From the NCBI GenBank assembly GCA_964645645.1, contig CAZYBC010000003.1, positions 13,369 to 77,368 on the forward strand: DNA of 64,000 nt, written 5' to 3'. This document shows, one piece after another, positions 556 through 56,368 of the stretch. The position numbers and the translations under genes are program-made. This DNA comes from an uncultured Pseudomonadales bacterium. GTDB taxonomy: Bacteria > Patescibacteriota > Microgenomatia > UBA1400 > PJMF01. Each line of letters opens with the position of its first letter. The stretch's first letter is position 1. Under the pieces are notes generated by a model. The model worked only from the letters and a program-made list of their open reading frames with translations, searched no databases and was not told where the DNA came from.

Positions 556-719
556 ACTTACTGCGAAATAAAATTTCGCAGTGAAGAATCGATATTTAAG
601 AGCGAAAAGGTCTGTTTTTGAGCGAAGTAGTAGCCATGCTACTTCGAGCGAGAAAACAAGCTTTACAGCCCTAAAGAGCGATTCTGTAGCCGAAAGGCTT
701 ATTTCGCAGTAAGTCTAAT
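556..719. repeat. ~165-bp element flanked by inverted repeats, with an internal conserved hairpin; candidate structured RNA or MITE-like element (copy A)
   Basis: Terminal inverted repeat gacttactgcgaaata ... tatttcgcagtaagtc. Internal hairpin cgaagtagtagccatgctacttcg. Homologous core to the element at 56059-56228, with different but still complementary terminal arms. Confidence 0.4.
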
Positions 720-11755: not shown

Positions 11756-14700
11756 ATGAACCTCTTCAACAAAAAACTTTTAGCCCAACATCTAGTTAAA
11801 TATAATTTTCCTAACGGTCAACAATTAGAAGATATCCAAAAAATCCTATCCGGTTGGCAAAAAGCTCTAAAAGACAGCAATCTTGATCGTACTAAAGAAA
11901 CTAGTATTCAAGGTCAATTCTTAACTAAATTTTTTGAAACTATTCTTGGATACGACACGCAAACATCTGGCAAAGAACTTTGGCATTTAAACCAAGAACC
12001 TAAAACCGAAGTTGATGCACAAGAGGCTGATGGAGCATTAGGCTTTTTTACCAAAAATTCAAGTAAAGTTTTAGCAGTCATTGAACTTAAAGATGCAAAA
12101 ACTTCTCTAGACAAAAAACAATCTGGCAGAATCGGTAAACTCACGCCAGTTGAACAAGCTTTTCAATATCTTAATAAATTTGATGGCTGTAAGTGGGCAA
12201 TTGTTGCAAACTTTAGAGAGATTAGAATTTACAGCAAACTTCGAGGCCAAGGTTTCTATGAAAAATTTGATATTATTAGCCTGACAGAAGAACCTGAATT
12301 TAAACGTTTTTATTACATTTTTAATAAAAATAATCTTATTAATGAAGGTAAAATATCAGTTACTGAATCTTTAGCTGCTGATACTACTGTCCAAGAAGAA
12401 AATATCACCAAAAAATTCTATGAGCAGTACAAAGAAATTAGACTTAAAGTTCTTAATCATTTATTTGAATACAATCCACAGGTTGATCGCTTAGTGCTAG
12501 TAGAAAAAACTCAAAAATTATTAGATAGATTATTGTTTACTTTAGTCTGTGAAGACTCAACCACCCTTTTACCAACACACATTGTTAAAACCACCTATGA
12601 TAGAAGTTTTCAATCCTTTGCTCTATCTGGCAACAATCAGCGAGTCTGGCTAAACTTTAAAGGCTTGTTTAAAGCTATTGATGAAGGTGTTAAGGATATC
12701 GATCCGCCAATCAATAAATATAACGGTGGTTTATTCAAAAATGATGAAATTTTAGATAATTTGATTATTAAAGATGACATCTGGAAAGAAATTATCAAGC
12801 TTACTCAATATGATTTTGAAAGCGATCTAAACGTCAATGTTCTGGGTCATATCTTTGAACAAAGTATTAGTGACCTAGAAGAAATCAAAGCTCAAGTTGA
12901 GGGTGAAGCGGTTGATAAGAAAAAATCATTACGAAAAAAACAAGGTATTTTTTATACTCCAGAATACATTACCAAATTTATTGTTGAAAATACTGTGGGT
13001 AAATACCTAGAAAAAAATCCTGATAAACTCAAAACTATCAAAATTCTTGATCCTGCTTGCGGTAGTGGAGCATTTTTAAATCAAGCTCATTCATTCTTGC
13101 TCAATCAATACAAGGTTAGAGATGAAGAAAAGCAACTAGAATTACAAAAGCAAGGGAAAGCCACTAGTTTATTTGATCTAAGTTGGGTAGAAAATGATAA
13201 AACTATTTTACTTAATAATTTATATGGAGTTGACTTAAGCCCTGAGAGTGTCGAAATTACCAAGCTTGCTCTGTGGCTGAAAACTGCCAAGGCTACTGAA
13301 CCACTGCAAAATCTAGACAATAATATTAAGTGTGGTAACTCACTGATTGATGATCCAGAAATTGCTGGTGATAAAGCATTTAATTGGAATACTGAATTTA
13401 AAGACATTATGGATGAAGGCGGATTTGATGTGATTATTGGGAATCCACCGTATGTGTACGCTAGGGAAAAAATTTCTTTTAACGAAAAGGAATATTTCAA
13501 CTCTGAATATTTATCAGCTGAATATCAGCTCAACACTTTTGTTTTATTTATAGAAAAATCAATTAAACTCTTGAAAGATAAAGGATTGCTTGGTTTTATT
13601 ATTCCCAATAGTTTACTAAAAATTGGTTCAATTTCAAAATTAAGAAAATACATTTTAGACAATACATCTGTCAATATTATAGTAAGTTTGTCTGGGTATT
13701 CATTTGAGAGTGTTAATGTGGAAACCGTAATACTTGTGGTCCAAAAAAACTCAAAAAATTCATATGTAGATGTAAAGAAAATTGAATCAGATACTGATAT
13801 ATATTCACAAGAATCATTTTCTGTTAATAGCTCAAGATGGAAAACGAATCAAAACTATGAATTTGATATTTTCTCATCAGATTCCGACTTAAAGCTGATC
13901 AGTAAAATTCAAACAAGCTCTCAAACTCTTGAGAGCTTGTTTAACGTAAAGGCTGGACTTCAAGCATACGAAAAAGGCAAAGGAAATCCAGTTCAAAATG
14001 AAGAAGATGTTAGGAATAGACCATATGACTTCCAAACTAAGGTTGATGAAAATACCCATAAATATTTAGAAGGAAAAAATATATCAAGATATCTTATCCA
14101 AGGATTTAGTTACTGGCTTAAATACGGTGATAACTTAGCTGCACCAAGATCATTCGATATTTTTTGTAGACCAAGAATATTGATCAGGGAAATAACAAAT
14201 AACCAACCATACTGCTTTCATGCATCCTATGTTGAAGAAACTTTTTTAAATAATAGAAGCATCATCAATGTGTTGGATCCCCAAAATGATAGGCAGAAAT
14301 TGCTGAATTTATTGGCAATAATCAATAGCAAACTAGCATCATGGTATTTCGTTAAAACTAATCCAAAAGCCAATAGATCAATGTTTCCAAAGCTGATTCT
14401 TAGAGATCTAGCAAATTTTCCCATTACTTTACCCAAAAACAAGATAAATCTGGATAAAGTAGAAAAATTAATAATCAAAATTTCAAAATTAAATACAAAA
14501 CTGTTCACTGAAAAAGGTAGATTGAATGAAATTATTGTTTCAAAATTTAAGTTAAAAAATAAAACAAACTTAATCAATTTTTACCAACTCGGTTGGAACG
14601 GATTCATTGCAGAACTTGAAAAACAAAAAGTTAAACTTGATGTCAGTGAACAAGATAAACTTAATAAGTGGTTCAACAAAGTTGGAAAGTCTTTATTGGA

Positions 14701-14803
14701 TCTTGAACAAGAAATTAGTGATCTAGACAGACAAATTGATCAATTTGTCTATGAGCTTTATGACTTAACCAAAGAAGAAATAAAATTAATAGAAAAAGAA
14801 TAA
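11756..14803 (+). CDS. Type IIG/IIL restriction-modification enzyme (gamma-class N6-adenine MTase with target-recognition C-terminus; putative N-terminal nuclease)
   Basis: 1015-aa single polypeptide. SAM-binding motif I LDPACGSGAFL and catalytic motif IV VIIGNPPY. N-terminal region has an IELKDAK stretch compatible with PD-ExK. No BREX partners nearby. Confidence 0.8.
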   Translation: MNLFNKKLLAQHLVKYNFPNGQQLEDIQKILSGWQKALKDSNLDRTKETSIQGQFLTKFFETILGYDTQTSGKELWHLNQEPKTEVDAQEADGALGFFTKNSSKVLAVIELKDAKTSLDKKQSGRIGKLTPVEQAFQYLNKFDGCKWAIVANFREIRIYSKLRGQGFYEKFDIISLTEEPEFKRFYYIFNKNNLINEGKISVTESLAADTTVQEENITKKFYEQYKEIRLKVLNHLFEYNPQVDRLVLVEKTQKLLDRLLFTLVCEDSTTLLPTHIVKTTYDRSFQSFALSGNNQRVWLNFKGLFKAIDEGVKDIDPPINKYNGGLFKNDEILDNLIIKDDIWKEIIKLTQYDFESDLNVNVLGHIFEQSISDLEEIKAQVEGEAVDKKKSLRKKQGIFYTPEYITKFIVENTVGKYLEKNPDKLKTIKILDPACGSGAFLNQAHSFLLNQYKVRDEEKQLELQKQGKATSLFDLSWVENDKTILLNNLYGVDLSPESVEITKLALWLKTAKATEPLQNLDNNIKCGNSLIDDPEIAGDKAFNWNTEFKDIMDEGGFDVIIGNPPYVYAREKISFNEKEYFNSEYLSAEYQLNTFVLFIEKSIKLLKDKGLLGFIIPNSLLKIGSISKLRKYILDNTSVNIIVSLSGYSFESVNVETVILVVQKNSKNSYVDVKKIESDTDIYSQESFSVNSSRWKTNQNYEFDIFSSDSDLKLISKIQTSSQTLESLFNVKAGLQAYEKGKGNPVQNEEDVRNRPYDFQTKVDENTHKYLEGKNISRYLIQGFSYWLKYGDNLAAPRSFDIFCRPRILIREITNNQPYCFHASYVEETFLNNRSIINVLDPQNDRQKLLNLLAIINSKLASWYFVKTNPKANRSMFPKLILRDLANFPITLPKNKINLDKVEKLIIKISKLNTKLFTEKGRLNEIIVSKFKLKNKTNLINFYQLGWNGFIAELEKQKVKLDVSEQDKLNKWFNKVGKSLLDLEQEISDLDRQIDQFVYELYDLTKEEIKLIEKE

Positions 14804-15586: not shown

Positions 15587-15735
15587 CTCTCACCTTGCTT
15601 GCTTAACACTAGCTAGGTTATATTTTTGTGATTTTGGTCTTGAATCTGTATTAAAAACGAAGAATTCTATAGGTTTTTCTATCTGAAAGAATGTTATAAT
15701 TTCATTCCAAAGGTCCGACAAAAGTTTATAAAAAA

Positions 15736-15765
15736 ATCCCCAGATTTCATACTGGGGATTTTTTA
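15736..15765. terminator. bidirectional intrinsic terminator
   Basis: Hairpin atccccag-N8-ctggggat, flanked by an A-run upstream and a T-run downstream, between convergent genes. Confidence 0.5.
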
Positions 15766-18990: not shown

Positions 18991-19042
18991 GTCAGGGCTA
19001 CGCTCAAAGGGCGTGGCTTGACTTAGCCATAGTGGAAAAAAA

Positions 19043-19077
19043 ACTCCCCCCGCAGGGGGAGTTAAATCATTTTGGTT
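19043..19077. terminator. bidirectional intrinsic terminator
   Basis: GC-rich hairpin actccccccgcagggggagt with an A-run on one side and T-rich sequence on the other, between convergent recQ and the LTXXQ gene. Confidence 0.5.
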
Positions 19078-19105
19078 TTTAACCAACGGTGAGGTTTTTA
19101 AAAAT

Positions 19106-19733: not shown

Positions 19734-20762
19734 CTAGGCTTTATTTAAACTAAGTGTAAAAACACTACCTTTACCTAATTGGCTAGCTACTTTTAATGAG
19801 CCTTGATGTTTATCAACAATAGCCTTAGCAATTGCTAAACCCAAACCTACTCCTTGCTTAGCAGTTCTAGCTGTATCAACTTGATAAAAACGTTCAAAAA
19901 TTTTATTAAGATGCTCTTTAGCAATTCCATCACCAAAGTCTTGAACAGCAAAATTAACCTGATTCTTCTGACTCAATATCAATTTAATTGAAGCTCCTTT
20001 TTTAGAATGCTTAATTGCATTATCCAACAAAATTGTTATTACCTGAGTAAAGGCGGCTGGCTCAACTCTTACAAAATGATCTTTTTTATCTGATTCCACT
20101 AAAATTTTAATTTTCTTATTTTTAATTAAAGCCCGTAAATTTAATAAGGCTTGATCTAATAAAGAATCTAAAGCTAAAACTTGAAATTGATAAATAGCCG
20201 TTTCATTTTTGGCCAAATCTAATAAACTTTGAGTTAATAGTTCTAATCTTTTAACATCTTCTAAATAGCTAATTAAAAGTTGTTGAGTTTTTGCTGGCAA
20301 CTTTTGATCTAATAAATCTGCCTCAATCCCTGTTTTTAAGGCTGTTAGAGGTGTTCTTAATTCATGGGCTGCATCGCTAACAAAGCGCTGTTGTTGTTCT
20401 AACGACTCTTGCAATGGCGCTAAAGTTTTCCCTGAAACATAAAAACTCGCTAATAAAATAATAGCGCCAATATAAAGATTAATTAATAAAATTTGTTCTA
20501 ATAAATCTTGACGAATTTTTAAATAATCTTCTGGGGCTACTCGCCAATTTCTTAACAAACCGGCTGGAGGAGGATTTAAAGGCTGGTTAAACTGATTCTG
20601 TAAGCGATCTTGCCAATGTTCAAATTGAGTTTTTAAAATTCCATTCACACGCCAATAAAGTAAGGCAGAAATTGTGCCAGTAATTGTTAAAGTAATTAAT
20701 GTATAAAGTAAACTTAATTTTAACCTAGCTAAAAAAAAGGTTTTTTTATTTTGTGTATTCAT
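19734..20762 (-). CDS. sensor histidine kinase
   Basis: N-terminal transmembrane segments, H-box HELRTPLTAL, N-box LLDNAIKHS, G-boxes DFGDGI and GVGLGLAIAK. Confidence 0.8.
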   Translation of the reverse strand: MNTQNKKTFFLARLKLSLLYTLITLTITGTISALLYWRVNGILKTQFEHWQDRLQNQFNQPLNPPPAGLLRNWRVAPEDYLKIRQDLLEQILLINLYIGAIILLASFYVSGKTLAPLQESLEQQQRFVSDAAHELRTPLTALKTGIEADLLDQKLPAKTQQLLISYLEDVKRLELLTQSLLDLAKNETAIYQFQVLALDSLLDQALLNLRALIKNKKIKILVESDKKDHFVRVEPAAFTQVITILLDNAIKHSKKGASIKLILSQKNQVNFAVQDFGDGIAKEHLNKIFERFYQVDTARTAKQGVGLGLAIAKAIVDKHQGSLKVASQLGKGSVFTLSLNKA

Positions 20763-21438
20763 CTGGTACTTTCAAAGCATAACCAAAACCACGCTTGGTT
20801 AAGATTAATGCTGGTAAGTGTTGAAAGGCTTGATCAATTTTTTTTCTTAAATAACCCAAATAAACTTGAGCGGTATTAGCTAAAACATTGTCTTCATAAG
20901 CCCAAACTTTTTCTACCAATTCATCCGCACTAAAAAAACGATTGGGATTACGCATTAAAAATTCTAATAATAAATATTCTTTTCGACTTAAATCAATTTT
21001 TTGCTTAGCTCTTTTAACTTCTTGAGTGTCAAAATTCAACTCTAAATCAACTATTTTGAGCATCTCTTGTTTATTGATTTTTGGTCTTCTAGTTAAAGCT
21101 TTAAGTCTAGCCAGTAATTCAGCAAAGGCAAATGGTTTTGCTAAATAATCATCTGCTCCAGCTTCTAAACCTTCTACTTTATCATTAATCATGGTTTTAG
21201 CAGTTAACATTAAAATGGGAGTAAAATTTTGTTTTTCTCGTAACTTTTGACAAACACTTAAACCATCTAAACTTGGCAACATTCGATCTAAAATAATCAC
21301 TTGATAATAATCATCTAAGGCCATTTCCAGACCAGTTATTCCATCTTCAGCCACATCAACGACATAGTTTTTAAACTCTAAACCTTTTTTAAGGTTGCTG
21401 GCAATTTTAGCATCATCCTCAATAATTAAAATTTTCAT
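20746..21438 (-). CDS. OmpR-family response regulator
   Basis: Receiver domain (IIEDD, D in ILDRMLP, Thr, Lys-Pro) plus a C-terminal winged-helix with GFGYAL; overlaps the kinase start. Confidence 0.85.
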   Translation of the reverse strand: MKILIIEDDAKIASNLKKGLEFKNYVVDVAEDGITGLEMALDDYYQVIILDRMLPSLDGLSVCQKLREKQNFTPILMLTAKTMINDKVEGLEAGADDYLAKPFAFAELLARLKALTRRPKINKQEMLKIVDLELNFDTQEVKRAKQKIDLSRKEYLLLEFLMRNPNRFFSADELVEKVWAYEDNVLANTAQVYLGYLRKKIDQAFQHLPALILTKRGFGYALKVPDEYTK

Positions 21439-21446
21439 AATAATTT

Positions 21447-21575
21447 CTTAATCTATACTCTTTCTAAACGCACCGCAGGCGGAATGGTTTAGAAAGAGTA
21501 TAGATTAAGTTCATATTTTCATATCTTTTCTAAACACATCGCGAGCAGAATGGTTTAAAAAAAAATATAGATTAA
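21447..21575. repeat. long hairpin with conserved loop (CATTCCGCCTGCGGTG family, inverted orientation) plus a degenerate second copy
   Basis: The 23-bp arms cttaatctatactctttctaaac / gtttagaaagagtatagattaag flank the loop gcaccgcaggcggaatg. A second related unit follows at 21523-21575. Confidence 0.5.
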
Positions 21576-21615: not shown

Positions 21616-23457
21616 TCAGTCTTTTTTCTCAGCTTCTACTAAGTCACAAATTTGATATAAGCTAACTTGATTAAAACCTCTATCTTGGTAATATTCTTTG
21701 GTGCCAATGGCAGAAATAACCGCTAACTTTTGATAACCAGCTGCTTGAGCTAATTTTTTAGCTTCAATAATTAATTTGCTACCAAATCCACCATGTTGAG
21801 CCAAATGTTGATCTTTTTTACCTAAAGCCGCTGTAACTCCATAAACGTGAACTTCACGGATCATCGCTGATTGATTCAATTCTGGCAAAAGAATAGGCTG
21901 ATTCTTTTTGGGTAAACTTAAACGCAAAAAAGCTAAAATCTTTTGATTGTTTTTTAAGATGAATTGCAAAAAAATCTCCTGACTAACAGCTGTTTCATAA
22001 ACAATTTGATCTAAAACCACATCATCTAAATTAAATTGCTCACGCCGAATTTCTCTTGCTCTAATATTCTGCGATTCTTGATGAAGTTTAGCTAAATAAT
22101 CTTGGGCAATCTGTCGGAAATTAGTTTTTTTATTTCCCACAACGATATTTTGCGAAGGAATATCCCTAATTACTCTCGTAATTCGGCAATAAGCCGGTGT
22201 ATTTTGTAACGCAAAACTAACTACCGCCAATAATTCTTCTTCAGTATATGGTTGCCATAAACCTTGCTGATATTTTTCCACTAAAGGAGCGCTGGCTAAT
22301 AAAGAGCAAGGATAAATCTTAATTTCATCTGGTCTAAAAGCTGGATCAGCAAAAATTTTTAAATAATCTTGCTGATCTTTTTGAGGGTCGCTGCCATATA
22401 AATTAGCCATCCAATGAATATGAATTTTAAAACCGGCCAAACGCAATAAAGCAAAAGCCTGTTTAGTCTGAGCCACAGTATGACCACGTTGATTTTTAGC
22501 TAAAACCTCATCATCCAAACTTTGCACGCCGATTTGCACTTTAGTACAGCCCAAACGGCGTAATTGTAAAACTCGCTGGGGAGTAATTCTATCTGGACGA
22601 GTTTCTAAAACTAAACCAACACAGCGCTTTTGCGCCTTTTGGTTAGTGGCTTGTTCAACTTCCAAGTCTGCCCAATCAGCTTGTTGATAAATATCTAAGC
22701 CCACCGCTTTTTCTGGACCAAGATATAATTCTTCCACAATTTGATTAAAACGTTGCGTTTTATTTTTGGCTGATAAATTCTTTTCTAACTGAATTTGATT
22801 TTTTTCTGGATTACTACTGCGAGCAAAAAAACCTAACTGCTCAGATTTTTTAGAAAAATTTTCATATAACTGTTCAATTTTTTGACAATCATTATTAACC
22901 CCAAATTCATTCATCGCCCGAAAACATTCTTTAATAAACCAAATTTGATAAGCGAGCGGATAATAATCCCATGTTCCACCCAAAACAATTAACTCTACTT
23001 TATCAATAGTATGACCCATTGCTTGTAGAGATTCCAAACGGCGATAGACTTGCAAATAAGGATCAAAAAAATTCCGCTCAGCCCGTTGCGCACCTGGCTC
23101 ATCAGCTAAATAACTTTTAGGCATGCGTAAATCATTAGGACAAAATAGACAATTGCCAGGACAAGGATAAGGTTTAGTGAGCACTGTTACAGGCGCTACT
23201 CCAGAGCTAGTGCGAATTGGTTTCATCTGCAATTGCGCCACAAATTGTGGATTAAAAGCTTGAAGGCCATGACTACCAGCCAACGCTCGATAAGCGGTAA
23301 TTAAATCAGTTTGCGAAAATAAATGCCCATTTACTTGAGGATATTTTTTCTTTAAGCGTTGTAATTCATCACCACTAAGCGGCAAATTTTTTTCTAGTTG
23401 CTTTAACAAGTCCAGAATCACTGGTAAATGTTTAGTATAATCAAAATTATGAGCCAT
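21616..23457 (-). CDS. Elp3-family radical SAM/GNAT protein (tRNA uridine-34 carboxymethyl/acetyl-transferase-like)
   Basis: CPGNCLFCPND radical-SAM Cys motif, followed by DPYLQVYRRLESLQAMGHTIDKVELIVLGGTW, which closely parallels the Elp3 block [32 protein letters not shown]. C-terminal GNAT-like region. Confidence 0.8.
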   Translation of the reverse strand: MAHNFDYTKHLPVILDLLKQLEKNLPLSGDELQRLKKKYPQVNGHLFSQTDLITAYRALAGSHGLQAFNPQFVAQLQMKPIRTSSGVAPVTVLTKPYPCPGNCLFCPNDLRMPKSYLADEPGAQRAERNFFDPYLQVYRRLESLQAMGHTIDKVELIVLGGTWDYYPLAYQIWFIKECFRAMNEFGVNNDCQKIEQLYENFSKKSEQLGFFARSSNPEKNQIQLEKNLSAKNKTQRFNQIVEELYLGPEKAVGLDIYQQADWADLEVEQATNQKAQKRCVGLVLETRPDRITPQRVLQLRRLGCTKVQIGVQSLDDEVLAKNQRGHTVAQTKQAFALLRLAGFKIHIHWMANLYGSDPQKDQQDYLKIFADPAFRPDEIKIYPCSLLASAPLVEKYQQGLWQPYTEEELLAVVSFALQNTPAYCRITRVIRDIPSQNIVVGNKKTNFRQIAQDYLAKLHQESQNIRAREIRREQFNLDDVVLDQIVYETAVSQEIFLQFILKNNQKILAFLRLSLPKKNQPILLPELNQSAMIREVHVYGVTAALGKKDQHLAQHGGFGSKLIIEAKKLAQAAGYQKLAVISAIGTKEYYQDRGFNQVSLYQICDLVEAEKKD

Positions 23458-23487: not shown

Positions 23488-24246
23488 ATGGACTTACAAA
23501 CAATTTCAACCCTCAATCAGCTTAATCAAACTTTCTACCAAACAGTGGCTCAAGACTTTAGTAACACCCGTAATTATTCTTGGCCTGGCTGGGAAAAACT
23601 ATTACCAAGCATTACCGAATTGCTAAAAAACAAAAAAACTATTCGCGTCTTAGACCTTGGTTGCGGGAATGGTCGCTTTGCGTTATTTTTAGCCCAACAC
23701 TTTGCTGGACAAATTGATTATTTAGGTTTAGATAGTGACGAACAATTATTATCAATTGCTCAAAAAAAATTAAGCGATCAAAACATCAAGACAAAATTTG
23801 AACAATTTGATTTAGTGGAAAATTTACTAAATCAGCAATTAACTGATAAGCTCACAGAAAAATTTGATCTGATTGTAATGTTTGGGGTCATTCATCATTT
23901 ACCAGCTTTACAACTTCGCCAACAGTTAATGAGTAGTTTAAATAGTTTATTAAATCATGATGGATTATTAATTTTTAGCTGTTGGCAATTTGCCAAAGAC
24001 GAAAGATTTAAAGATAGAGTAGTGGATCCTAAAAACTTAAAAATTGATCCCCAAAATTTAGAACATAACGACTATATTTTAGATTGGAAGCAAGGCCAAA
24101 CCGCTTATCGCTACTGTCATTTTGTTGATGAACAAGAATTGGCTAATTTAACTAACTCTGCCAATTGGCAAACTCAACAAACTTTTTTAGCCGACGGGAA
24201 AAGCGGTCAGCTAAATTTATATTGGGTAGGGGAATTGGGGAAATAA
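23488..24246 (+). CDS. class I SAM-dependent methyltransferase
   Basis: Motif I VLDLGCGNGRFALFLA, and post-I acidic D in LGLDSDE. Confidence 0.65.
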   Translation: MDLQTISTLNQLNQTFYQTVAQDFSNTRNYSWPGWEKLLPSITELLKNKKTIRVLDLGCGNGRFALFLAQHFAGQIDYLGLDSDEQLLSIAQKKLSDQNIKTKFEQFDLVENLLNQQLTDKLTEKFDLIVMFGVIHHLPALQLRQQLMSSLNSLLNHDGLLIFSCWQFAKDERFKDRVVDPKNLKIDPQNLEHNDYILDWKQGQTAYRYCHFVDEQELANLTNSANWQTQQTFLADGKSGQLNLYWVGELGK

Positions 24247-24511
24247 TCTTTGCTTGATTTGCTTGGCTTCGCCAAGAGATCTGCGCAAAGATTATTTCCC
24301 CAATTTATCATTCTGCCCTCGGTGTGTTTAATTAGAATAGCTAATATTAGATCTTGTAAATCGTTCCACTCGCGGTGCGTTTAACTAGGAAACTAATACT
24401 ATACTTTTCAAATCATTCCGCTTCTTGCGGGGCATTTAATTAGAATAGCTAATATTAGATCTTGTAAATCGTTCCGCCTGCGGCGTATTTACAAGATCTA
24501 ATATTAGAGAA
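24247..24511. repeat. composite repeat locus: conserved ~45-nt leader plus four hairpin/loop units of the CATTCCGCCTGCGGTG family
   Basis: Begins ttgcttgatttgcttggcttcgccaagagatctgcgcaaag, ~90% identical to 52495-52540. Contains the units cattctgccctcggtgtgtttaattag, cgttccactcgcggtgcgtttaactag, cattccgcttcttgcggggcatttaattag and cgttccgcctgcggcgtatttacaag. The last 21-bp-stem hairpin spans 24449-24507. Confidence 0.55.
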
Positions 24512-39675: not shown

Positions 39676-39984
39676 TTGAAAAAAGAAATCATCCTACATT
39701 TTTTAGCTATAAAAGAGCTTGATACTTTTTCTGTAGAAGTTAGAGCTAGATTCAATGATCTCTTTGAAATTTTAGGTGAAAAAGGCAAGTTAGAAATGCC
39801 TTTTTCAAAGAAAATAAACAATAAATTATTTGAAATTAGAATTAAACAAAAAGGTCAATGGAGAGCTATCTATGCTTACATCTCTAAAAAACAAATAATA
39901 ATTTTGTCTGCTTTTGCAAAAAAAACTCAAAAAACACCAAAGAAAGAATTAACAAAAGCATTAAAGAGGCTTAGAGAATATTAA
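39676..39984 (+). CDS. type II toxin, HigB/Gp49-like (DUF891, RelE/ParE superfamily)
   Basis: 102 aa. LFEIRIKQKGQWRAIYAYISKKQIIILSAFAKKTQKTPKKEL matches the Gp49/HigB block (...WELR...RI.Y......I.LLH.F.KKTQKTP..E). It precedes an HTH antitoxin. Confidence 0.6.
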   Translation: MKKEIILHFLAIKELDTFSVEVRARFNDLFEILGEKGKLEMPFSKKINNKLFEIRIKQKGQWRAIYAYISKKQIIILSAFAKKTQKTPKKELTKALKRLREY

Positions 39985-39991
39985 AAAATAT

Positions 39992-40273
39992 ATGAAAAAT
40001 AAAACCACAATTCCACTCCATCAATGGAGTCAACAATTTACTCCCGCGCAGAAAAAAAATGCACAAAAAGCTAATAATTACTATGCTGTTGTTGAAGAAT
40101 TTAAAAAAACTAGAAAAAAGCTTGGGCTTACTCAACAGCAATTAGCAGATAAAGCTAAAATTGATCGCACCGTTGTAACTAAAATAGAAACTGGAGCCAG
40201 AAATACTACTATCAATAGTTTAATGATCTTTGCGGAAGCAATGGGTAAAAAACTTAAAATAAGTTTTGTTTAA
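39992..40273 (+). CDS. HTH XRE-family antitoxin (HigA-like)
   Basis: LGLTQQQLADKAKIDRTVVTKIETGARNTTINSLMIFAEAMG is a canonical Cro/C1-type HTH; starts 8 nt after the toxin stop. Confidence 0.7.
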   Translation: MKNKTTIPLHQWSQQFTPAQKKNAQKANNYYAVVEEFKKTRKKLGLTQQQLADKAKIDRTVVTKIETGARNTTINSLMIFAEAMGKKLKISFV

Positions 40274-40327
40274 GCTGTAAAAACGCGCCCGTTTTGGAAC
40301 GGTGTCGTGTCACGGTGTCAATGTTGA

Positions 40328-40397
40328 TGCCCGACCTGGATTCGAACCAGGATTGAAGGCTTCAAAGGCCTCTGTCCTGCCATTAGACGATCGGGCA
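40328..40397 (-). tRNA. tRNA-Gln (anticodon TTG)
   Basis: Reverse complement TGCCCGATCGTCTAATGGCAGGACAGAGGCCTTTGAAGCCTTCAATCCTGGTTCGAATCCAGGTCGGGCA. U1-A72 acceptor pair typical of tRNA-Gln, anticodon loop CTTTGAA, and T-loop GGTTCGAATCC. Confidence 0.7.
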
Positions 40398-41856: not shown

Positions 41857-41891
41857 AGCCTTACTGCTAAATAAAATTTCGTAGTAAGGCT
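41857..41891. repeat. palindromic hairpin of the cttactgcNaaat family
   Basis: agccttactgctaaataaaatttcgtagtaaggct is a near-perfect 15-bp stem, related to the hairpins at 556-590 and 51133-51150. Confidence 0.4.
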
Positions 41892-44720: not shown

Positions 44721-45170
44721 ATGTCCCAACTTTTACTCGTTTATGGCACTACTACTGGCAACACTGAAACCGTAGCACTTAAAATTCAACAATTACTTAC
44801 TCAAGCTAACCACCAAGTAACGGTTAAAAATGTCACTGAAACTAGTGTCGAGGAATTAAAAAATTATGAAAACTTCATCTTCGGTAGCTCTACTTGGGAT
44901 GATGGTCAATTGCAAGCTGATATGAAAGAATTTTTAGCTAAATTAGCTGGCAGTGGTTTTAAGTTAGTTGGTAAAAAAGTTGCCTTATTTGCCTTGGGTG
45001 ACTCTGGTTATCCAGCTTTTTGCGCTAGTGCAGAATTATTAAAAACAGCCTTAATTACCGACGGTGTTAATCAAGTAGGCGAAGTGCTAAAAGTTGATGG
45101 CTTCCCAGATATGGGAGAAAATCCTCAAAAAATTACTGCTTGGGTAACTAATCTAAGTGCCAACTTATAG
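44721..45170 (+). CDS. flavodoxin
   Basis: LLVYGTTTGNTE FMN-phosphate-binding signature and SSTWDDG; 149 aa. Confidence 0.8.
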   Translation: MSQLLLVYGTTTGNTETVALKIQQLLTQANHQVTVKNVTETSVEELKNYENFIFGSSTWDDGQLQADMKEFLAKLAGSGFKLVGKKVALFALGDSGYPAFCASAELLKTALITDGVNQVGEVLKVDGFPDMGENPQKITAWVTNLSANL

Positions 45171-46604
45171 CTTACACTCATAAATTGCTACATCGTCAAA
45201 AATTTCTTGATCATTGCCATTAATGATAGTTAATTGGTGACAGGTTTTTACGAAAACTTCTTCTGCAAAATAACCTTCATAACCAGTATCAGGTTTGGCG
45301 TTGTAGCTTAAATTTGCCACTTTAGTAAATAAATAAATACCTTGTTCAGCTGCTTGCTGGCTAACAGCTTGTTTATCCAAAGCCCCAGAGGCAAAAAGTT
45401 GAGTATTGGTATCAATTAGCTCACCAAATAATTCTTTGTGGCTGGCTAAAGCAACTAAAGGAGCCACTTCATGCGAACCATAAAATTTGTAATTTTTAGT
45501 TAAATGATTATTAACATAATTAACAACTTCAACTAATTGAACAAATTTTCCTTGATCATGAAACACTTGCATATAATTTAAAAAACGAGGAACAGTTACA
45601 AGCAAATAAAAAACAGCCACTGATACTAAAACCTGCTTCTGCCAAGATTTACTTTGTTGCCAAAAAGATGCCAAATTTTCCAATAATAATAAACTAAAAA
45701 AAGGACTAAAAACTCCCAAGTATAAATAATATAAATCTGCAAAGCTAAGAAAAAAGATTAGCAAAGCAATAATCGGTAAAACTAGACGATAATCTTTTTT
45801 CTTAACTGTGTTAATAGCGCTCCAAACTAATAACATTAATAACAAAAAATCTTTTTCAATAAAAAATTTAATGATTGTTAATTTATCTAAACCCTTTGGC
45901 CGAGCGAGTTGATGCAACAAAGTAAAATTAAATACTTCTTTAAAAGCTGTTAACAAAAATGGCAACATGACTAATAAACCAGTTGCAATAAAACCCAACA
46001 AAAATTTTGCTAATTTTTGCCAATCTTTTTTTAAAACTAAATACAAGCAATAAGCTAACAAAGCTGGCGCTGTGTAAAGTTTGATTAAACTAGCTAAGGC
46101 CCAAAAAATGCCACTCATTAACGGTTGGTCCTCAAAGTACCAAGCTAAACTTAAAAATAAAATCACCCAATGCAAACCAGTAACATAATCGCTAGTGGAT
46201 AAAATCAAAAAAGAAAATAAATGAATAAAACTAACTAGGGGAGCAAAGTGATTGTGAGCTTTTTTTAATTTTAAAAATAAAACTAGAACTGTCAGTAACT
46301 CACAAATAATCGGCACAGCTTGAAATAAAATTAAATGATCACCAATCAAAAATTTAACTCCGGCTAGTAAATAAACTAATAAAGGCGGATCAGCTAACGG
46401 AAAATCTAAATAAGGTTTAGCCCCGTGCAAGATTTGATCAGCCATGTAAAAATAAGCATTGCCATCACCAAAACGCAAAGCTAAATGACTGAATTTGTAC
46501 CATGCAAAAAAAATCATTGGCAATAAAAAAATCAACCAACTAAAAACTGACTTTTTAGCTAGATTAGCAAAGTCTAATTGCAAATTTTTTTTTAAGCCAA
46601 GCAT
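45165..46604 (-). CDS. polytopic membrane protein, GT-C/DUF2029-like putative glycosyltransferase
   Basis: ~10 transmembrane segments with an Asp-containing first loop (RFGDGNAYFY, DFPLADPP) and a C-terminal soluble domain. Assignment by architecture only. Confidence 0.35.
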   Translation of the reverse strand: MLGLKKNLQLDFANLAKKSVFSWLIFLLPMIFFAWYKFSHLALRFGDGNAYFYMADQILHGAKPYLDFPLADPPLLVYLLAGVKFLIGDHLILFQAVPIICELLTVLVLFLKLKKAHNHFAPLVSFIHLFSFLILSTSDYVTGLHWVILFLSLAWYFEDQPLMSGIFWALASLIKLYTAPALLAYCLYLVLKKDWQKLAKFLLGFIATGLLVMLPFLLTAFKEVFNFTLLHQLARPKGLDKLTIIKFFIEKDFLLLMLLVWSAINTVKKKDYRLVLPIIALLIFFLSFADLYYLYLGVFSPFFSLLLLENLASFWQQSKSWQKQVLVSVAVFYLLVTVPRFLNYMQVFHDQGKFVQLVEVVNYVNNHLTKNYKFYGSHEVAPLVALASHKELFGELIDTNTQLFASGALDKQAVSQQAAEQGIYLFTKVANLSYNAKPDTGYEGYFAEEVFVKTCHQLTIINGNDQEIFDDVAIYECKL

Positions 46605-47519: not shown

Positions 47520-47712
47520 TTAAAAATTAATTAAGATTGTTTGGAAGTAAGGTGAAAATCCTTCGCTGTGCCGCAACGGTTAAAGTCCGATACAAGCAAT
47601 CACTTTGAATTATTTTCAAAGTTAAACTGACGAGCATCGGGTTTTTGGTTGCCCAATAAATATTGGCAAACAAAAAAATTTCCCCGTATTGCTCCTCTTT
47701 TGAGGAGTTTTT
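47520..47712 (+). promoter_or_regulatory. cobalamin (AdoCbl-variant-like) riboswitch with terminator expression platform
   Basis: GGAAGTAAGGTGAAAATCCTTCGCTGTGCCGCAACGGTTAAAGTCCGATAC matches the cobalamin aptamer core (GGTGnAAnTCC ... CnGnCCCGCnACnGTnA ... AGYCnGAnAC B12-box-like), without a long peripheral extension. Followed by the hairpin gctcctcttttgaggag plus TTTTTT at 47691-47712, immediately before the ATG. Confidence 0.55.
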
Positions 47713-47714
47713 TA

Positions 47715-48320
47715 ATGGCTATTAACGCCGAATTACTTAGACCAACACGAGTTTTTCATCCAGAAAAAAGTACTCATTTCTGGCAAGATTTAACAGCCGT
47801 AGCTGTTGGTTTTTTTAGTAACTTAAAACTCAATTCCAAAAATCTTTTTCACCCCAATACTAATAAACAAGCTGGTGAAACTTGGCAAAGTTTGTCGTAT
47901 CTAAACAATCGCGATCAGTATCAGCAGCTAACTCAGTTGCTTGAATATATGGCTTTAGAATTGCGAACATATTTTGATGAATATGTCGCTTTAAAAGTTA
48001 TCAAAACTTATCCTAATTTTGGCGAAAAAGGCATTGATAATATTGCTCCATTTAATTTAGTCAGTATTGCTCAGCAAACTAAACAAGATTTAGCCGAAAA
48101 AGGTTTTGATACAACTAGAGCTGATTTAGAAATTATCGCTATGCAAAAACTGCTTAATTTTCTTAGTGATGAACAAGTTCCGATTGGCAGTTGTCTCGTT
48201 TACATTAGTCCACGTGGGCCTAAATATATGTATTTAGGTTATGAACTAAGCAATAACAATTATCTTAATTTGTATCTTAAAAACCGGGCCGGGGCAAGCT
48301 CGATTAATTCAATTGCTTAA
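47715..48320 (+). CDS. hypothetical protein (201 aa), first gene under the riboswitch
   Basis: Start reassigned to MAINAELL, right after the terminator. The tracked start 47649 lies inside the expression platform. Soluble, no motif. Confidence 0.45.
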   Translation: MAINAELLRPTRVFHPEKSTHFWQDLTAVAVGFFSNLKLNSKNLFHPNTNKQAGETWQSLSYLNNRDQYQQLTQLLEYMALELRTYFDEYVALKVIKTYPNFGEKGIDNIAPFNLVSIAQQTKQDLAEKGFDTTRADLEIIAMQKLLNFLSDEQVPIGSCLVYISPRGPKYMYLGYELSNNNYLNLYLKNRAGASSINSIA

Positions 48321-48786
48321 CTATGACGTTAATGAAAGTTTAATTAATCAATTTTTACCTTTTTTAAGCCAACAACAAGCAGCGCAAATTTATTCACCGT
48401 TTCAATCAGCTAATCCTTTGCATCATTTAGCCGCTGGGTCTTTAAGTGATGAACATTTTTTGATTAATACTTTAATGCTCATTCCAGCTGACCAATTCAA
48501 TTTAGATCTAGTCATTCAGCAAGCGTTCCAAAATTCAGCGCAATGGCTAACTAAAATTAGCGACTTTCCTCAATTTGATTATCAAGCTTATGTTCAGCAA
48601 GAAAATCAATTATTAGCTTTATTTAAACAATTAACTGAACAAGTTTTTTCTGCAAATGAAGATCCCCAGTTAAACGCCCAAAAGCTTGATCAATTAGTGG
48701 CCATTATGAAAAAAATTTTCAAAAATGGACAGAAGAAAATGCGAGCAACTATCATCCAGTTAAACAAATTAGCAAACTTAATTTGA
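48313..48786 (+). CDS. hypothetical protein (157 aa)
   Basis: Overlaps the upstream stop by 8 nt (translational coupling); Gln-rich; no motif. Confidence 0.45.
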   Translation: MLNYDVNESLINQFLPFLSQQQAAQIYSPFQSANPLHHLAAGSLSDEHFLINTLMLIPADQFNLDLVIQQAFQNSAQWLTKISDFPQFDYQAYVQQENQLLALFKQLTEQVFSANEDPQLNAQKLDQLVAIMKKIFKNGQKKMRATIIQLNKLANLI

Positions 48787-49367
48787 TGGATATTGAAACT
48801 GAATGGCGCTTAGCTTGTAAAAAAATCACTGGCCAACAACTCAATCAACAAGAGCAACAACACGCGAAACAACTTCAACAACGTTATCAACTTAATCCTA
48901 GTTTGCCTTTACAAAAAATTAGCCACTTAAATTTTTGTTTACCACGTTTTAATTTAGCTAGAAATTTACAAATCCATACTGGGCAAGGATTAAGTAATTT
49001 ACAAGGTTTAGAACTAAATCAATTTTTGCGAAAACAAAAATACATTACTTTAAAACTAGCTGGGCAAGAATGGAAAGTGCCAGCTAGTTACTTAAAAGGC
49101 AAAGGTTGTTATGAAAATGGAGGAGTGGCCTATGGCCCGTGTGGCATTCCTTTAGCGCAAGATCCTTATGCCATTACTTTGGCAGATTATCAGCAGTTGT
49201 TAGACCGTCAACGCTCAGAAAAAAAATCATCCAAAAAAGCTAATCAAAATTTACCGGCCACTAACGATAATGAAAAAATTGATTTGCCACCAGTGAGTCT
49301 AACTGCTTTTATTAATAGTTTGGTTTTTGGCGACCCACTAGAAATCACTAACTTAGACTTAGATTAG
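48783..49367 (+). CDS. hypothetical protein (194 aa)
   Basis: Overlaps the upstream stop by 4 nt. Gln-rich N-terminus and a GCYENGGVAYGPCGIP Cys/Gly motif. Confidence 0.45.
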   Translation: MMDIETEWRLACKKITGQQLNQQEQQHAKQLQQRYQLNPSLPLQKISHLNFCLPRFNLARNLQIHTGQGLSNLQGLELNQFLRKQKYITLKLAGQEWKVPASYLKGKGCYENGGVAYGPCGIPLAQDPYAITLADYQQLLDRQRSEKKSSKKANQNLPATNDNEKIDLPPVSLTAFINSLVFGDPLEITNLDLD

Positions 49368-51131: not shown

Positions 51132-51159
51132 TAGCCTTACTGCGAAATAAAACAACAAA

Positions 51160-52500
51160 ATGAAAAAAATTTTAGCCTTAATTTTACTTAGCTACTTTAG
51201 ATTTTTTGCTCAGCTACAACTTAAAAAAATTAAACCGTTAATTATTGGCGTTACTGGTACAGCTGGTAAAACCAGCACCCGTGATGAAATTTATGCCATC
51301 CTCAAAAACCACTTTAAAGTAAAAGTTAGTTATAAAGCCAATAGTGAAAGTGGCATTCCGCTTAATATTTTAGGCTTAGCGCCAACTAATTTTTCATTAC
51401 TAGATTGGTTGCGCTTAGCCATTTTAGCGCCTGTAAAATTGCTTACCAATTGGGAAAAATATGATATTTATTTGGTAGAAATGGCCATTGATGGCCCAAC
51501 TCCTCCCAAAAACATGGGCTACCTCTTAACCATTATTAAGCCTGACATTGGCGTTTTTCTAAATACCGCCCTTGTCCACAGTCTTGCTTTTGATCATTTA
51601 GTGGAAGAAACCGATCCAAAATTACGAGCTAAAAAAATCCGCCAAATCATTGCCGCTGAAAAGGGTAAATTAATTACTCAATTACCAAAAAATGGTTTAG
51701 CGGTTTTAAACGCTGATGATGAATCAGTAGCTAATTTTGCTAAACAAACTCAAGCCCAAGTAACTTTATTTGGTCAAAATAAATCCGCCCAATTAAAAAT
51801 CGGCCTGATTACTCAAAATTTAAGCGGCAGTACTTTTACCCTCAGTTATCAACAAGAAAGCGTAACAATCAAAATTAAAAATTATTTACTCCCTGACCAT
51901 TTTGCTTACAGTTTAGCTGCCGCCTGTGCAGTAGGCTTGCATTTAGGTTTAACTCTAGCCACCTGTGCCAAAAACCTTGAAGCTAATTTTAAACTTGCTC
52001 CTGGTAGAGCGACATTAATTCCAGGAATTAAACAAAGTTTAATTTTTGATAGCTCTTACAACTCTTCTCCAAATACAGTGATTGATGGGCTGACAATGTT
52101 GAGCAAAATCAAAGCCAAACGCTTAATTGCGGTACTAGGGGACATGCGCGAAATGGGCCAGCAGAGCAAAACCGAACACGAAAAAGTCGCCCAATTTGCC
52201 GCCAAAACTGCTGATCAAATTATTTTAGTTGGCCAAGAAATGCAAGCTTATGCTTTGCCAGTGTTGGAAAAACTACAAGCTAAAGTAACAAGTTTTGACA
52301 ATGCCTATCAAGCCGCTGATTACTTAAAAACCCAAATTAAGCCAAGTGATCTAATTTTTGTCAAAGGGTCACAAAATACTATTTTCTTAGAAATTGTCGT
52401 AGAAGCCATTATGGCTAATCCCAGTAAAGCTGAACAATTGTTATGCCGAAGAGGGGAAATGTGGGGAAAAAAGAGAATATCAATAAAATCACTTGCTTGA
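51160..52500 (+). CDS. murF: UDP-N-acetylmuramoyl-tripeptide--D-alanyl-D-alanine ligase-like Mur ligase
   Basis: GVTGTAGKTST P-loop, DSSYNSSPNT (MurF DDSYNANP-like), 446 aa. Confidence 0.65.
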   Translation: MKKILALILLSYFRFFAQLQLKKIKPLIIGVTGTAGKTSTRDEIYAILKNHFKVKVSYKANSESGIPLNILGLAPTNFSLLDWLRLAILAPVKLLTNWEKYDIYLVEMAIDGPTPPKNMGYLLTIIKPDIGVFLNTALVHSLAFDHLVEETDPKLRAKKIRQIIAAEKGKLITQLPKNGLAVLNADDESVANFAKQTQAQVTLFGQNKSAQLKIGLITQNLSGSTFTLSYQQESVTIKIKNYLLPDHFAYSLAAACAVGLHLGLTLATCAKNLEANFKLAPGRATLIPGIKQSLIFDSSYNSSPNTVIDGLTMLSKIKAKRLIAVLGDMREMGQQSKTEHEKVAQFAAKTADQIILVGQEMQAYALPVLEKLQAKVTSFDNAYQAADYLKTQIKPSDLIFVKGSQNTIFLEIVVEAIMANPSKAEQLLCRRGEMWGKKRISIKSLA

Positions 52501-52723
52501 TTTGCTTGGCTTTGCCAAGAGATCTACACAAGTGATTTTATTTCTATCTATACTTTTCAAATTATTTAAGTGGAGCGCTTTTATGTTTTAAAAATAAGTT
52601 CATGAACTTAATATTAGCCTTTCTAAATCATTCCGCTTGCGGTGTGTTTAACTAGAAAAATAGTAATAGACCTTGTAAACCATTCCGCCTGCGGTGTGTT
52701 TACAAGGTCTATTACTATTTTTT
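52495..52723. repeat. composite repeat locus (second copy): conserved leader plus loop units; terminal 20-bp-stem hairpin 52660-52718
   Basis: cttgcttgatttgcttggctttgccaagagatctacacaag, then ctatacttttcaaat, then cattccgcttgcggtgtgtttaactag, then atagtaatagaccttgtaaa-c-cattccgcctgcggtgtg-tttacaaggtctattactat followed by T8. Confidence 0.55.
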
Positions 52724-56065: not shown

Positions 56066-56228
56066 AGTAACCTGAATCTCAAAATAGATCTTGAGATAAT
56101 TGTATAATATTTAATTAATTTTAGCATTTTCTGATGACAATAGTAGCCGTAGCTACTTGCGAAAGAAGAAAATAGCTAAAATTGTTAAAGAGTATAAAAT
56201 TAGCCAAGATATATTTTGAGATTCAGGT
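56059..56228. repeat. ~170-bp inverted-repeat-flanked element homologous to 556-719 (copy B)
   Basis: Terminal inverted repeat aacctgaatctcaaaata ... tattttgagattcaggtt (18 bp). Internal caatagtagccgtagctacttgcgaaagaagaaaatag parallels cgaagtagtagccatgctacttcgagcgagaaaacaag of copy A. Shared taaagag and tagccNaa blocks. Confidence 0.4.
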
Positions 56229-56368
56229 TAAACAATATAAAATAAACTCAGGAGAATAAAAAAGTTGAAAGAAAACAAAACGCATGGTTTTAAACAAAAT
56301 TTTTTTAAGTAATATTAGTCGCGCAGATCTCTGCAGCGAAGCAAAGACAATCAAGCGACTATTATTAC

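Follow-up and report, generated by a model that had tools for sequence, protein, structure and literature searches.

The intergenic DNA of the window (the whole 64-kb stretch analyzed here, from a Microgenomates-like Patescibacteria genome) harbors short tandem repeats that end in long perfect hairpins. Judged by its sequence, this family, here called B, is best read as a real, previously undescribed, and lineage-specific family of non-coding intergenic repeats of a fairly ordinary, REP- or NIME-like kind. The last unit of each of these lineage-specific arrays may well have become a perfect hairpin by template-switch copying. A preliminary description of the same DNA had reported three convergent sites that carry perfect hairpins with a conserved loop and completely different stems, and had attributed the loop conservation to recognition by a protein or at the RNA level. 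The observation is confirmed in part, and the interpretation is partly supported.

Family B is characterized by a core of ∼26 nt (AAAY-CRTTCCGC-YT-GCGGYG-YRTTTA, also written AAAY-C-RTT-CCGC-YT-GCGG-YGY-RTTTA) that is present in eight copies at three loci of the window (Table 1). All eight copies are intergenic, take on the same direct orientation inside each locus, and are spaced by 52–67 nt. The motif CATTCCGCCTGCGGTG has five matches in the window at up to three mismatches, where 0.05 would be expected. The eight copies were aligned, and a covariance model built from this alignment was used to search the window. It recovers exactly its eight cores at 34.6–46.2 bits, with the next-best match at 17 bits, so that the repeat family reported in the preliminary description is genuine. 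The same holds for the perfect hairpin at each locus (23, 21, and 25 bp) and for the stem-less copies that precede the hairpins, of which five are found. The spans that had been assigned to the second and third locus (24247–24511 and 52495–52723) do contain the B arrays, but they also take in hairpins of a second family, A (24233–24305 and 52482–52542), that had not been separated from them.

Table 1. Repeat features of the three loci and related sequences, in coordinates of the window.
Feature	Position	Strand	Description
Locus 1 terminal B hairpin	21447..21509	-	23-bp perfect arms around core CATTCCGCCTGCGGTGC (21462-21492); 9 nt separate its end from the start codon of the response regulator (21438)
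Locus 1 upstream B core	21528..21558	-	degenerate, 4 mismatches to consensus; stem decayed, imperfect; part of a 67-nt tandem unit
Locus 2 A hairpin	24233..24305	+	21-bp perfect arms around core TTGATTTGCTTGGCTTCGCCAAGAGATCTGC
Locus 2 B core 1	24303..24333	+	stem-less, degenerate
Locus 2 B core 2	24356..24386	+	stem-less
Locus 2 B core 3	24408..24441	+	stem-less; apex loop enlarged by a 3-nt insertion
Locus 2 terminal B hairpin	24449..24507	+	21-bp perfect arms, core 24464-24494; its end lies 4 nt short of the convergent MacB-type permease stop (24512)
Locus 3 A hairpin	52482..52542	+	14-bp perfect arms; stop TGA of the Mur ligase (51160-52500) inside the conserved core
Possible relic B unit, locus 3	52559..52591	+	AAATTATTTAAGTGGAGCGCTTTTATGTTTTAA; aligns positionally with locus 2 B cores; below model threshold, not recovered by the model
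Locus 3 B core 1	52623..52653	+	stem-less; 1 mismatch to consensus
Locus 3 terminal B hairpin	52656..52722	+	25-bp perfect arms, core 52675-52705; A5 tract before, T8 after; ends 1 nt before the convergent [FeFe]-hydrogenase stop (52724)
Doubtful diverged B relative, not counted as a member	19062..19103	+	AAATCATT...CGGTGAGGTTTTTAA, different apex; another convergent gap; 15 bits, E 0.6

The core takes on a small internal structure. A mini-stem of 3–4 bp, CCG(C)/(G)CGG, is capped by a CYUG tetraloop, and all eight copies keep one U-G pair together with the same asymmetric mismatches, a bulged C and a U-U. The Y-R pair occurs as C-G, U-G, or U-A. The whole hairpin unit is one imperfect helix of ∼35 bp, in which the 17 nt that had been taken for a loop continue the helix instead. 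The 5′ flanks of the cores read GTAAAY, CTAAAY, or TCAAAT. Repeats within an array are 60–90% alike and diverge by as many as 5 of 26 positions and one indel. The hairpin cores deviate from the consensus by 0, 1, and 3 mismatches, and the four stem-less cores that align gap-free by 1, 4, 5, and 5 (core 3 of locus 2, with its 3-nt insertion, was left out of the scoring). In two of the three pairwise comparisons between hairpins, the core is more conserved than the arms (16/17 versus 12/21 positions, Fisher p=0.011; 14/17 versus 9/21, p=0.015). Covariation within the core does not exceed that of shuffle controls, and the strand asymmetry of its folding is small and inconsistent among copies, giving no strand call. 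RNA folding of the three loci gives z-scores of −8.2, −10.9, and −8.6 (overall −8 to −11).

Each B unit of 52–67 nt consists of a semi-conserved spacer and the 26-nt core, and the units form short direct tandem arrays directly downstream of genes. The array period is ∼52–54 nt, with a 27-nt conserved segment alternating with a less conserved one of 25–26 nt. Two related spacer types can be told apart, and they are shared among loci. Loci 2 and 3 can be aligned from one end to the other, through the A hairpin, the B units, and the B hairpin, with one extra 108-nt duplication in locus 2; there, a 41-nt run (24327–24367) is identical to 24435–24475, which includes part of the 5′ arm of the terminal B hairpin. 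The arms of the hairpins are related as well. Those of loci 2 and 3 are identical at 16 of 21 positions (76%), or at 13 of 17 outside of AAAY (P about 1e-4), and the arm of locus 1 has homologs in two places, namely the spacer that precedes the locus 3 stem-less core and the unit lying 67 nt upstream of the arm itself. The stems hence do not differ completely, as had been thought. What stands of the picture of a conserved loop between divergent stems is the higher conservation of the core in two of the three comparisons; the contrast was overstated, as the arms are homologous and have diverged.

The relationship between hairpins and stem-less copies gives the direction of change. The 5′ arms of all three B hairpins have paralogs in direct orientation before stem-less cores. 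On the 3′ side, stem-less cores are followed by CTAGRAAA..., and hairpin cores only by the reverse complement of their own 5′ flank. In locus 2, a stem-less copy continues as CTAGGAAAC..., which is homologous to the flank in locus 3, and what follows the terminal copy is solely the reverse complement of the spacer in front of it. Since the 5′ arms have direct paralogs and the 3′ arms exist only as inverted copies, it is the hairpin that is derived. The same polarity is seen in the A hairpin of locus 2. Its 5′ arm consists of the final four methyltransferase codons with the stop codon of this gene, and the gene's homolog in a relative ends at the same place; because this arm is a coding end with its stop codon, the 3′ arm must be the copy. 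Taken together, these flanks show a polarity in which the 5′ arm is the template and the 3′ arm is the copy.

The way in which the arms vary distinguishes copying from compensation. The three B hairpins were trimmed to 21-bp arms and compared, with 500 shuffles as control. Twelve of the 21 arm pairs differ by double substitutions (14 cells, often A-U/U-A or G-C/C-G transversion flips), and there are no one-sided changes, no unpaired positions, and no G-U pairs, values that are reached by none of the 500 shuffles. Covariation, which the preliminary description proposed to test, is present in the arms; in the core, it does not exceed the controls. Fold-back copying is preferred as the explanation, since all-or-none double changes with perfect Watson–Crick pairing are what it yields. 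The absence of G-U pairs and mismatches, together with 3′ arms that are reverse complements, points to copying at the DNA level rather than compensation at the RNA level. Recognition of the loop by a protein or as RNA, as had been proposed, fits this arm pattern less well, and no candidate binding or mobilizing protein is found in the window.

In the terminal unit of every array, an exact reverse complement of the 5′ spacer has taken the place of what followed the core. In the proposed mechanism, this replacement would proceed via intra-strand template switching (fold-back copying) during replication, and the small GC-clamped hairpin of the core may nucleate the switch. The outcome is a perfect palindrome of 21–25 bp around a conserved apex, and family A is built likewise at two of the loci. 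Template switching is documented to give rise, in a single event, to perfect stems and to compensatory changes of several bases (PMC8794818), and quasipalindrome template-switch mutation is well studied in bacteria (PMC7202029). The hairpins share with these mutations that one arm is an exact reverse complement, that multi-base differences arise without G-T intermediates, and that arms can extend into the flanks (PMC8794818; PMC7202029). Template-switch mutation is a process, however, and not a family of elements; here, it has apparently acted repeatedly on members of both A and B, always beside a small conserved hairpin. The fold-back reading is based on three loci in one 64-kb window, and the core speaks against it in two ways: its bulged C, U-U, and U-G are conserved and not “corrected”, and the hairpin copies are nearer to the consensus than most stem-less ones. 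Both hint at a constraint on the core that the fold-back model leaves unexplained. That a U tract, a canonical terminator feature, accompanies only one of the three B hairpins also counts against the overall reading.

Alternatively, the asymmetric core could be the recognition site of a trans-acting protein or RNP, for example a HUH/Y1 transposase as on REP or IS200/IS605 ends or an RNA-binding protein, and the family would be mobilized or used through its core. This alternative is unlikely, though several of the features above speak for it, namely the conservation of the core over the arms in two of three comparisons, the mismatches and the U-G pair kept in all eight copies, and the hairpin copies being nearest to the consensus. 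The loci are also 3 kb and 28 kb apart, hence the spread was not purely local. Against it, no transposase, RAYT/HUH, integrase, Cas, or Nop gene was found among the 59 distinct ORFs scanned in the window. The copies are moreover related by descent, and their conservation may reflect recent ancestry alone; covariation in the core stays within the shuffle controls, the motif was not found in the public collections searched, and the copies are arranged in direct tandem rather than in the inverted pairs typical of REPINs and BIMEs.

The REP, BIME (PU), and REPIN elements of Proteobacteria are among the closest known counterparts. Like family B, they are short (20–40 nt) imperfect extragenic palindromes at gene 3′ ends, especially convergent ones, with a lineage-specific sequence and with RNA hairpins that are able to stabilize the upstream mRNA. 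The B core is itself an imperfect extragenic palindrome. Differences to the REP/RAYT system are the lack of a 5′ GTAG tetranucleotide in every B copy, the direct tandem order in place of alternating or inverted pairs, and the lack of a RAYT gene among the ORFs of the window. In contrast to REP and BIME elements, family B additionally carries long perfect outer arms that are locus-specific and lie outside of the conserved element. The NIMEs (Neisseria intergenic mosaic elements) are built from dRS3 repeats that flank RS blocks of 50–150 nt. Like the B loci, they are intergenic mosaics, where copies of a small, conserved palindrome take turns with blocks that are less conserved and occur again at other loci. 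The B blocks, however, have only ∼26 nt, show no similarity to dRS3, and have no visible link to prophage integration, and the terminal perfect fold-back hairpins found in B are not known as a NIME trait.

Other classes of elements were considered and rejected. A MITE does not fit, as the outer arms differ between loci, the left arm of A and the right arm of B, which bound the composite, are not inverted copies of each other, and flanking direct duplications are absent. Integron attC sites carry the boxes R′′ (RYYYAAC) and R′ (GTTRRRY) at the base of an imperfect hairpin of 57–141 nt with a variable center. The TAAAC/GTTTA boxes of the B repeats misfit this pattern, and here it is the center that is conserved and not the base; the window also contains neither an integrase nor cassettes. 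An IS200/IS605-derived element (PATE), which would have subterminal hairpins that are alike at both ends and a fixed tetra- or pentanucleotide target, is rejected because the left (A) and right (B) hairpins are unrelated and tnpA/tnpB are missing from the window.

The position of the repeats relative to genes bears on their possible function. Every locus starts at a stop codon or a few nt from it and occupies the entire gap to the next gene, and the genes that flank the repeats are housekeeping genes. Only two of the three sites are convergent as had been reported, site 2 between the methyltransferase (23488–24246) and the MacB permease, and site 3 between the Mur ligase and the [FeFe]-hydrogenase. 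Site 1 lies between Elp3 (21616–23457) and a response regulator (20746–21438), which are co-directional on the minus strand. At the convergent sites, the copied 3′ arms end 1–4 nt short of the native stop codons. A TATGAAT that is shared beside two hairpins was considered as a target site and rejected, as it represents the native Tyr-Glu-stop of the MacB and hydrogenase genes. Both endings are taken as native, since the C-terminal KYE of the hydrogenase is conserved in relatives and the ALRYE ending of MacB is typical of its family. Transcripts of the flanking genes would acquire highly stable 3′-terminal hairpins from these modules. Judged by their position, the hairpins likely reside in the 3′ UTRs of the upstream genes, with one of them intercistronic and 9 nt before a start codon, and may act in termination, protection from 3′-exonucleases, or RNase III processing.

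An alternative reading regards the repeats as ordinary factor-independent (bidirectional) terminators or mRNA 3′-end stabilizers that were duplicated among a few gene ends and need neither mobility nor a special mechanism. Their location directly after the stop codons of convergent genes and the filled gaps agree with this, as do the generally hairpin-rich gene 3′ ends of the window and the locus 3 hairpin (52656–52722), which, like the plain terminator at 15731–15764, has its stem preceded by an A tract and followed by a T tract. A T8 run is, however, seen only after this B hairpin; the other two B hairpins and both A hairpins have no T tract, and hence no U tract in the transcript. A terminator scan calls none of the long A or B hairpins, and its only calls inside of the loci are two overlapping ones on stem-less core 3 (24416–24433), which supports the view that these are probably not canonical intrinsic terminators. 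The stems are AT-rich, perfect, and 21–25 bp long, compared to 13–14 bp and GC-containing in the terminators elsewhere in the window. Neither an apex that is common to several loci nor extra stem-less tandem cores, which have no terminator role, belong to rho-independent terminators. Perfect stems of more than 20 bp would furthermore be substrates of RNase III. A purely terminator-based origin is therefore improbable for these loci.

Long hairpins are abundant in the window beyond family B. The 64-kb window contains nine perfect hairpins of at least 12 bp, compared to about 0.6 in block shuffles and one in 44 kb of its closest relatives. Family A is unrelated to B and follows the same design, with the core TTGATTTGCTTGGCTTYGCCAAGAGATCTRC, and is present at loci 2 and 3. 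Family C comprises two hairpins of ∼165 nt each (553–718 and 56068–56230; z about −10) with the common apex AGTAGCC-RT-GCTACTT and unrelated outer arms. In a fourth family, arms of CTTACTGCGAAAT recur at three sites. Palindromes with shared centers and locus-specific arms thus seem to be a property of this genome. A genomic background that is permissive for the growth of palindromes by template switching fits this, and so does an undescribed hairpin-generating element, which is less likely. In its most specific form, the latter supposes that the small hairpin apexes of B, A, and perhaps C are recognized by an undescribed CPR-specific enzyme that mobilizes a tiny unit, and that the arms are built by self-primed fold-back synthesis from the flank of the insertion site. 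This is a long shot; if true, it would define a new class of hairpin-generating mobile element and explain why the genome has so many long palindromes with shared centers compared to its relatives.

Even less probable is an insertion model, in which the 26-nt core moves as a minute palindrome into the centers of palindromes that were already there, and the stems are unrelated host sequence. Variable arms around a conserved apex would be expected in this case, and IS elements that target the loops of REP/BIME palindromes exist. The reading is disfavored by the arms being 76% identical at loci 2 and 3, by the paralog that every 5′ arm has before stem-less cores, by five cores that are entirely stem-less, by the coding sequence in the 5′ arm of the locus 2 A hairpin, and by relatives that contain no empty palindrome at the syntenic sites.

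Guide-RNA arrays, either CRISPR-like mini-arrays or TIGR dual-repeat/stem-loop arrays, are effectively refuted by the anatomy of the loci. TIGR arrays need two variable spacers of ∼9 nt, each bracketed by box C/D-type motifs, plus a tas gene, and are frequent in CPR (PMC12045711; bioRxiv 10.64898/2026.09.09.750476). The loci share with TIGR stem-loop arrays the CPR host, tandem hairpins, variable palindromic stems with short conserved inner motifs, and sometimes a secondary loop hairpin (PMC12045711; bioRxiv 10.64898/2026.09.09.750476), and the regular period of ∼52–54 nt with its alternation of conserved and less conserved segments is array-like. The B interior, however, consists of 17 conserved nt and is too small for two 9-nt spacers with box C/D motifs (at least 28 nt), and the A interior of 31–33 nt hardly differs between its two copies, with C-N9-D intervals absent from both strands. 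As for CRISPR, the “spacers” share homology both inside a locus and from one locus to another, one of them being an exact duplicate, the repeats are too divergent at 60–90% similarity within an array, and no cas gene is present in the 64-kb window. No tas gene was found in the window either: Pfam searches for the Nop domain, which a divergent Tas might escape, gave no match at E up to 1 for unannotated ORFs and up to 1e-5 or 1e-3 for the others.

The family is as yet confined to this genome. The window has a G+C content of 33.7%, and its proteins are closest to MAG proteins of Patescibacteria/Microgenomates (Woesebacteria-like). The best non-self relatives, which are syntenic, have 71% identity in Elp3 and 58–60% in the Mur ligase. 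In 64 kb of the relatives' syntenic DNA, the covariance model for B finds nothing above 14.4 bits, and neither an A nor a B core is present. The convergent gap of the methyltransferase comprises 9 nt in relatives, and the gap between the Mur ligase and the hydrogenase is occupied in two relatives by an additional gene, which is not the same one in both. Neither GTDB species genomes nor JGI metagenome contigs contain a match to a strict pattern of the B core, and a looser gapped pattern has none among IMG/VR viral contigs. The looser pattern gives five single matches (L005–L009); the three that were inspected (L005, L006, and L008) lack hairpin flanks and are probably due to chance. The A core has no match in viral contigs, and the A+B composite has none in phage or plasmid collections. 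In agreement with the preliminary description, which did not recognize the family, an Rfam search of the whole window at gathering thresholds places no family at the three loci; relaxed scans of loci 2 and 3 give just sub-threshold matches to generic long hairpins (miRNA precursors). As matches are missing from the public collections searched and from relatives, the B family is young and lineage-restricted, and has so far been found only in this candidate-phyla-radiation bacterium.

The compact genomes of Patescibacteria are thought to hold little repetitive DNA, and to our knowledge, small intergenic repeat families have hardly been described in them. If the fold-back reading holds, the B loci represent a clean natural case in which template switching turns a tandem unit into a long perfect palindrome, and the “perfect covariation” of a hairpin may stem from DNA copying and not from selection on RNA structure. 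In CPR genomes, such palindromes may pass for guide-RNA arrays or structured RNAs. They also break assemblies, as in a 962-nt Logan contig (L001) that has the same sequence as the locus 2 A hairpin up to the apex and ends exactly there.

Two long intergenic hairpins, each a near-continuous fold, follow the same design as the B family (the repeats with ~26-nt cores), namely a conserved centre with locus-specific arms. An apex of ~45 nt that centres on AGTAGCC-RT-GCTACTT is common to both, while their outer arms are unrelated; a search of Rfam returned no match for either. The base of the hairpin at 553-718 re-uses an arm from a further small hairpin family, CTTACTGCGAAAT-AAA-ATTTCGCAGTAAG, which is characterized by conserved stems. 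Six arm instances of this family are distributed over three loci, and a doubtful extra match with two mismatches lies within the ORF 59495-62881, giving seven matches in total versus 2.3 expected when the doubtful one is counted. This ORF encodes 1128 aa, and its sole Pfam match is a PAPS-reductase-like domain at the C-terminal end.

Intergenic and intragenic hairpin features of the window
Feature	Position	Structure	MFE (kcal/mol)	z	Location
Long intergenic hairpin	553-718	~165 nt	-70.9	~ -10	
Long intergenic hairpin	56068-56230	~165 nt	-64.4	~ -10	
CTTACTGCGAAAT-AAA-ATTTCGCAGTAAG arms	557-585				
CTTACTGCGAAAT-AAA-ATTTCGCAGTAAG arms	701-713				
CTTACTGCGAAAT-AAA-ATTTCGCAGTAAG arms	41860-41888				
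CTTACTGCGAAAT-AAA-ATTTCGCAGTAAG arms	51136-51148				
Perfect inverted repeat	45746-45804	15-bp arms, 29-nt loop			ORF 45165-46604
Perfect inverted repeat	13911-13942	14-bp arms			type IIG restriction-modification gene

A half copy of the small hairpin is located immediately 5' of the Mur ligase start codon. At its other end, the Mur ligase gene converges with an [FeFe]-hydrogenase gene, and the junction between them (52500-52724) is a variable spot. In this genome it holds the A/B repeat module only; in the corresponding DNA of two relatives (L010, 11333-11831; L012, 2647-3841), the junction is occupied by a 158-aa ORF of unknown function in one and by a 365-aa ORF in the other. The convergent gap 18991-19105 contains two GC-rich hairpins, of which AAAAAAAACTCCCCC-CGCA-GGGGGAGTT looks terminator-like. 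Both are followed by the stretch AAATCATT…CGGTGAGGTTTTTAA (15 bits, E 0.6), a possible diverged B-like unit.

An A hairpin, from the second hairpin family, lies across the 3' end of a methyltransferase gene that is identical in a 962-nt Logan contig from SRR11845629. The contig (positions 938-962) stops precisely at the A-hairpin apex (…gcttggcttc), which shows that de Bruijn assemblies break at palindromes of this kind. For the 5' half of the hairpin the contig is corroborating evidence, although the MAG may have been built from this very run.

Perfect inverted repeats additionally occur within coding regions. One host ORF has a weak match to PMT_2 (glycosyltransferase); the other (11756-14803) encodes a large single-polypeptide restriction-modification enzyme that combines an Eco57I/MmeI-type methylase with a TaqI_C specificity domain. 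An AdoCbl-II (cobalamin) riboswitch at 47527-47603 lies 5' of three small ORFs (47649-49367) that gave no Pfam match and possibly encode a transporter. A toxin-antitoxin pair at 39676-40273, made up of a Gp49-like (HigB-type) toxin and an HTH antitoxin, adjoins a tRNA gene at 40327-40397.
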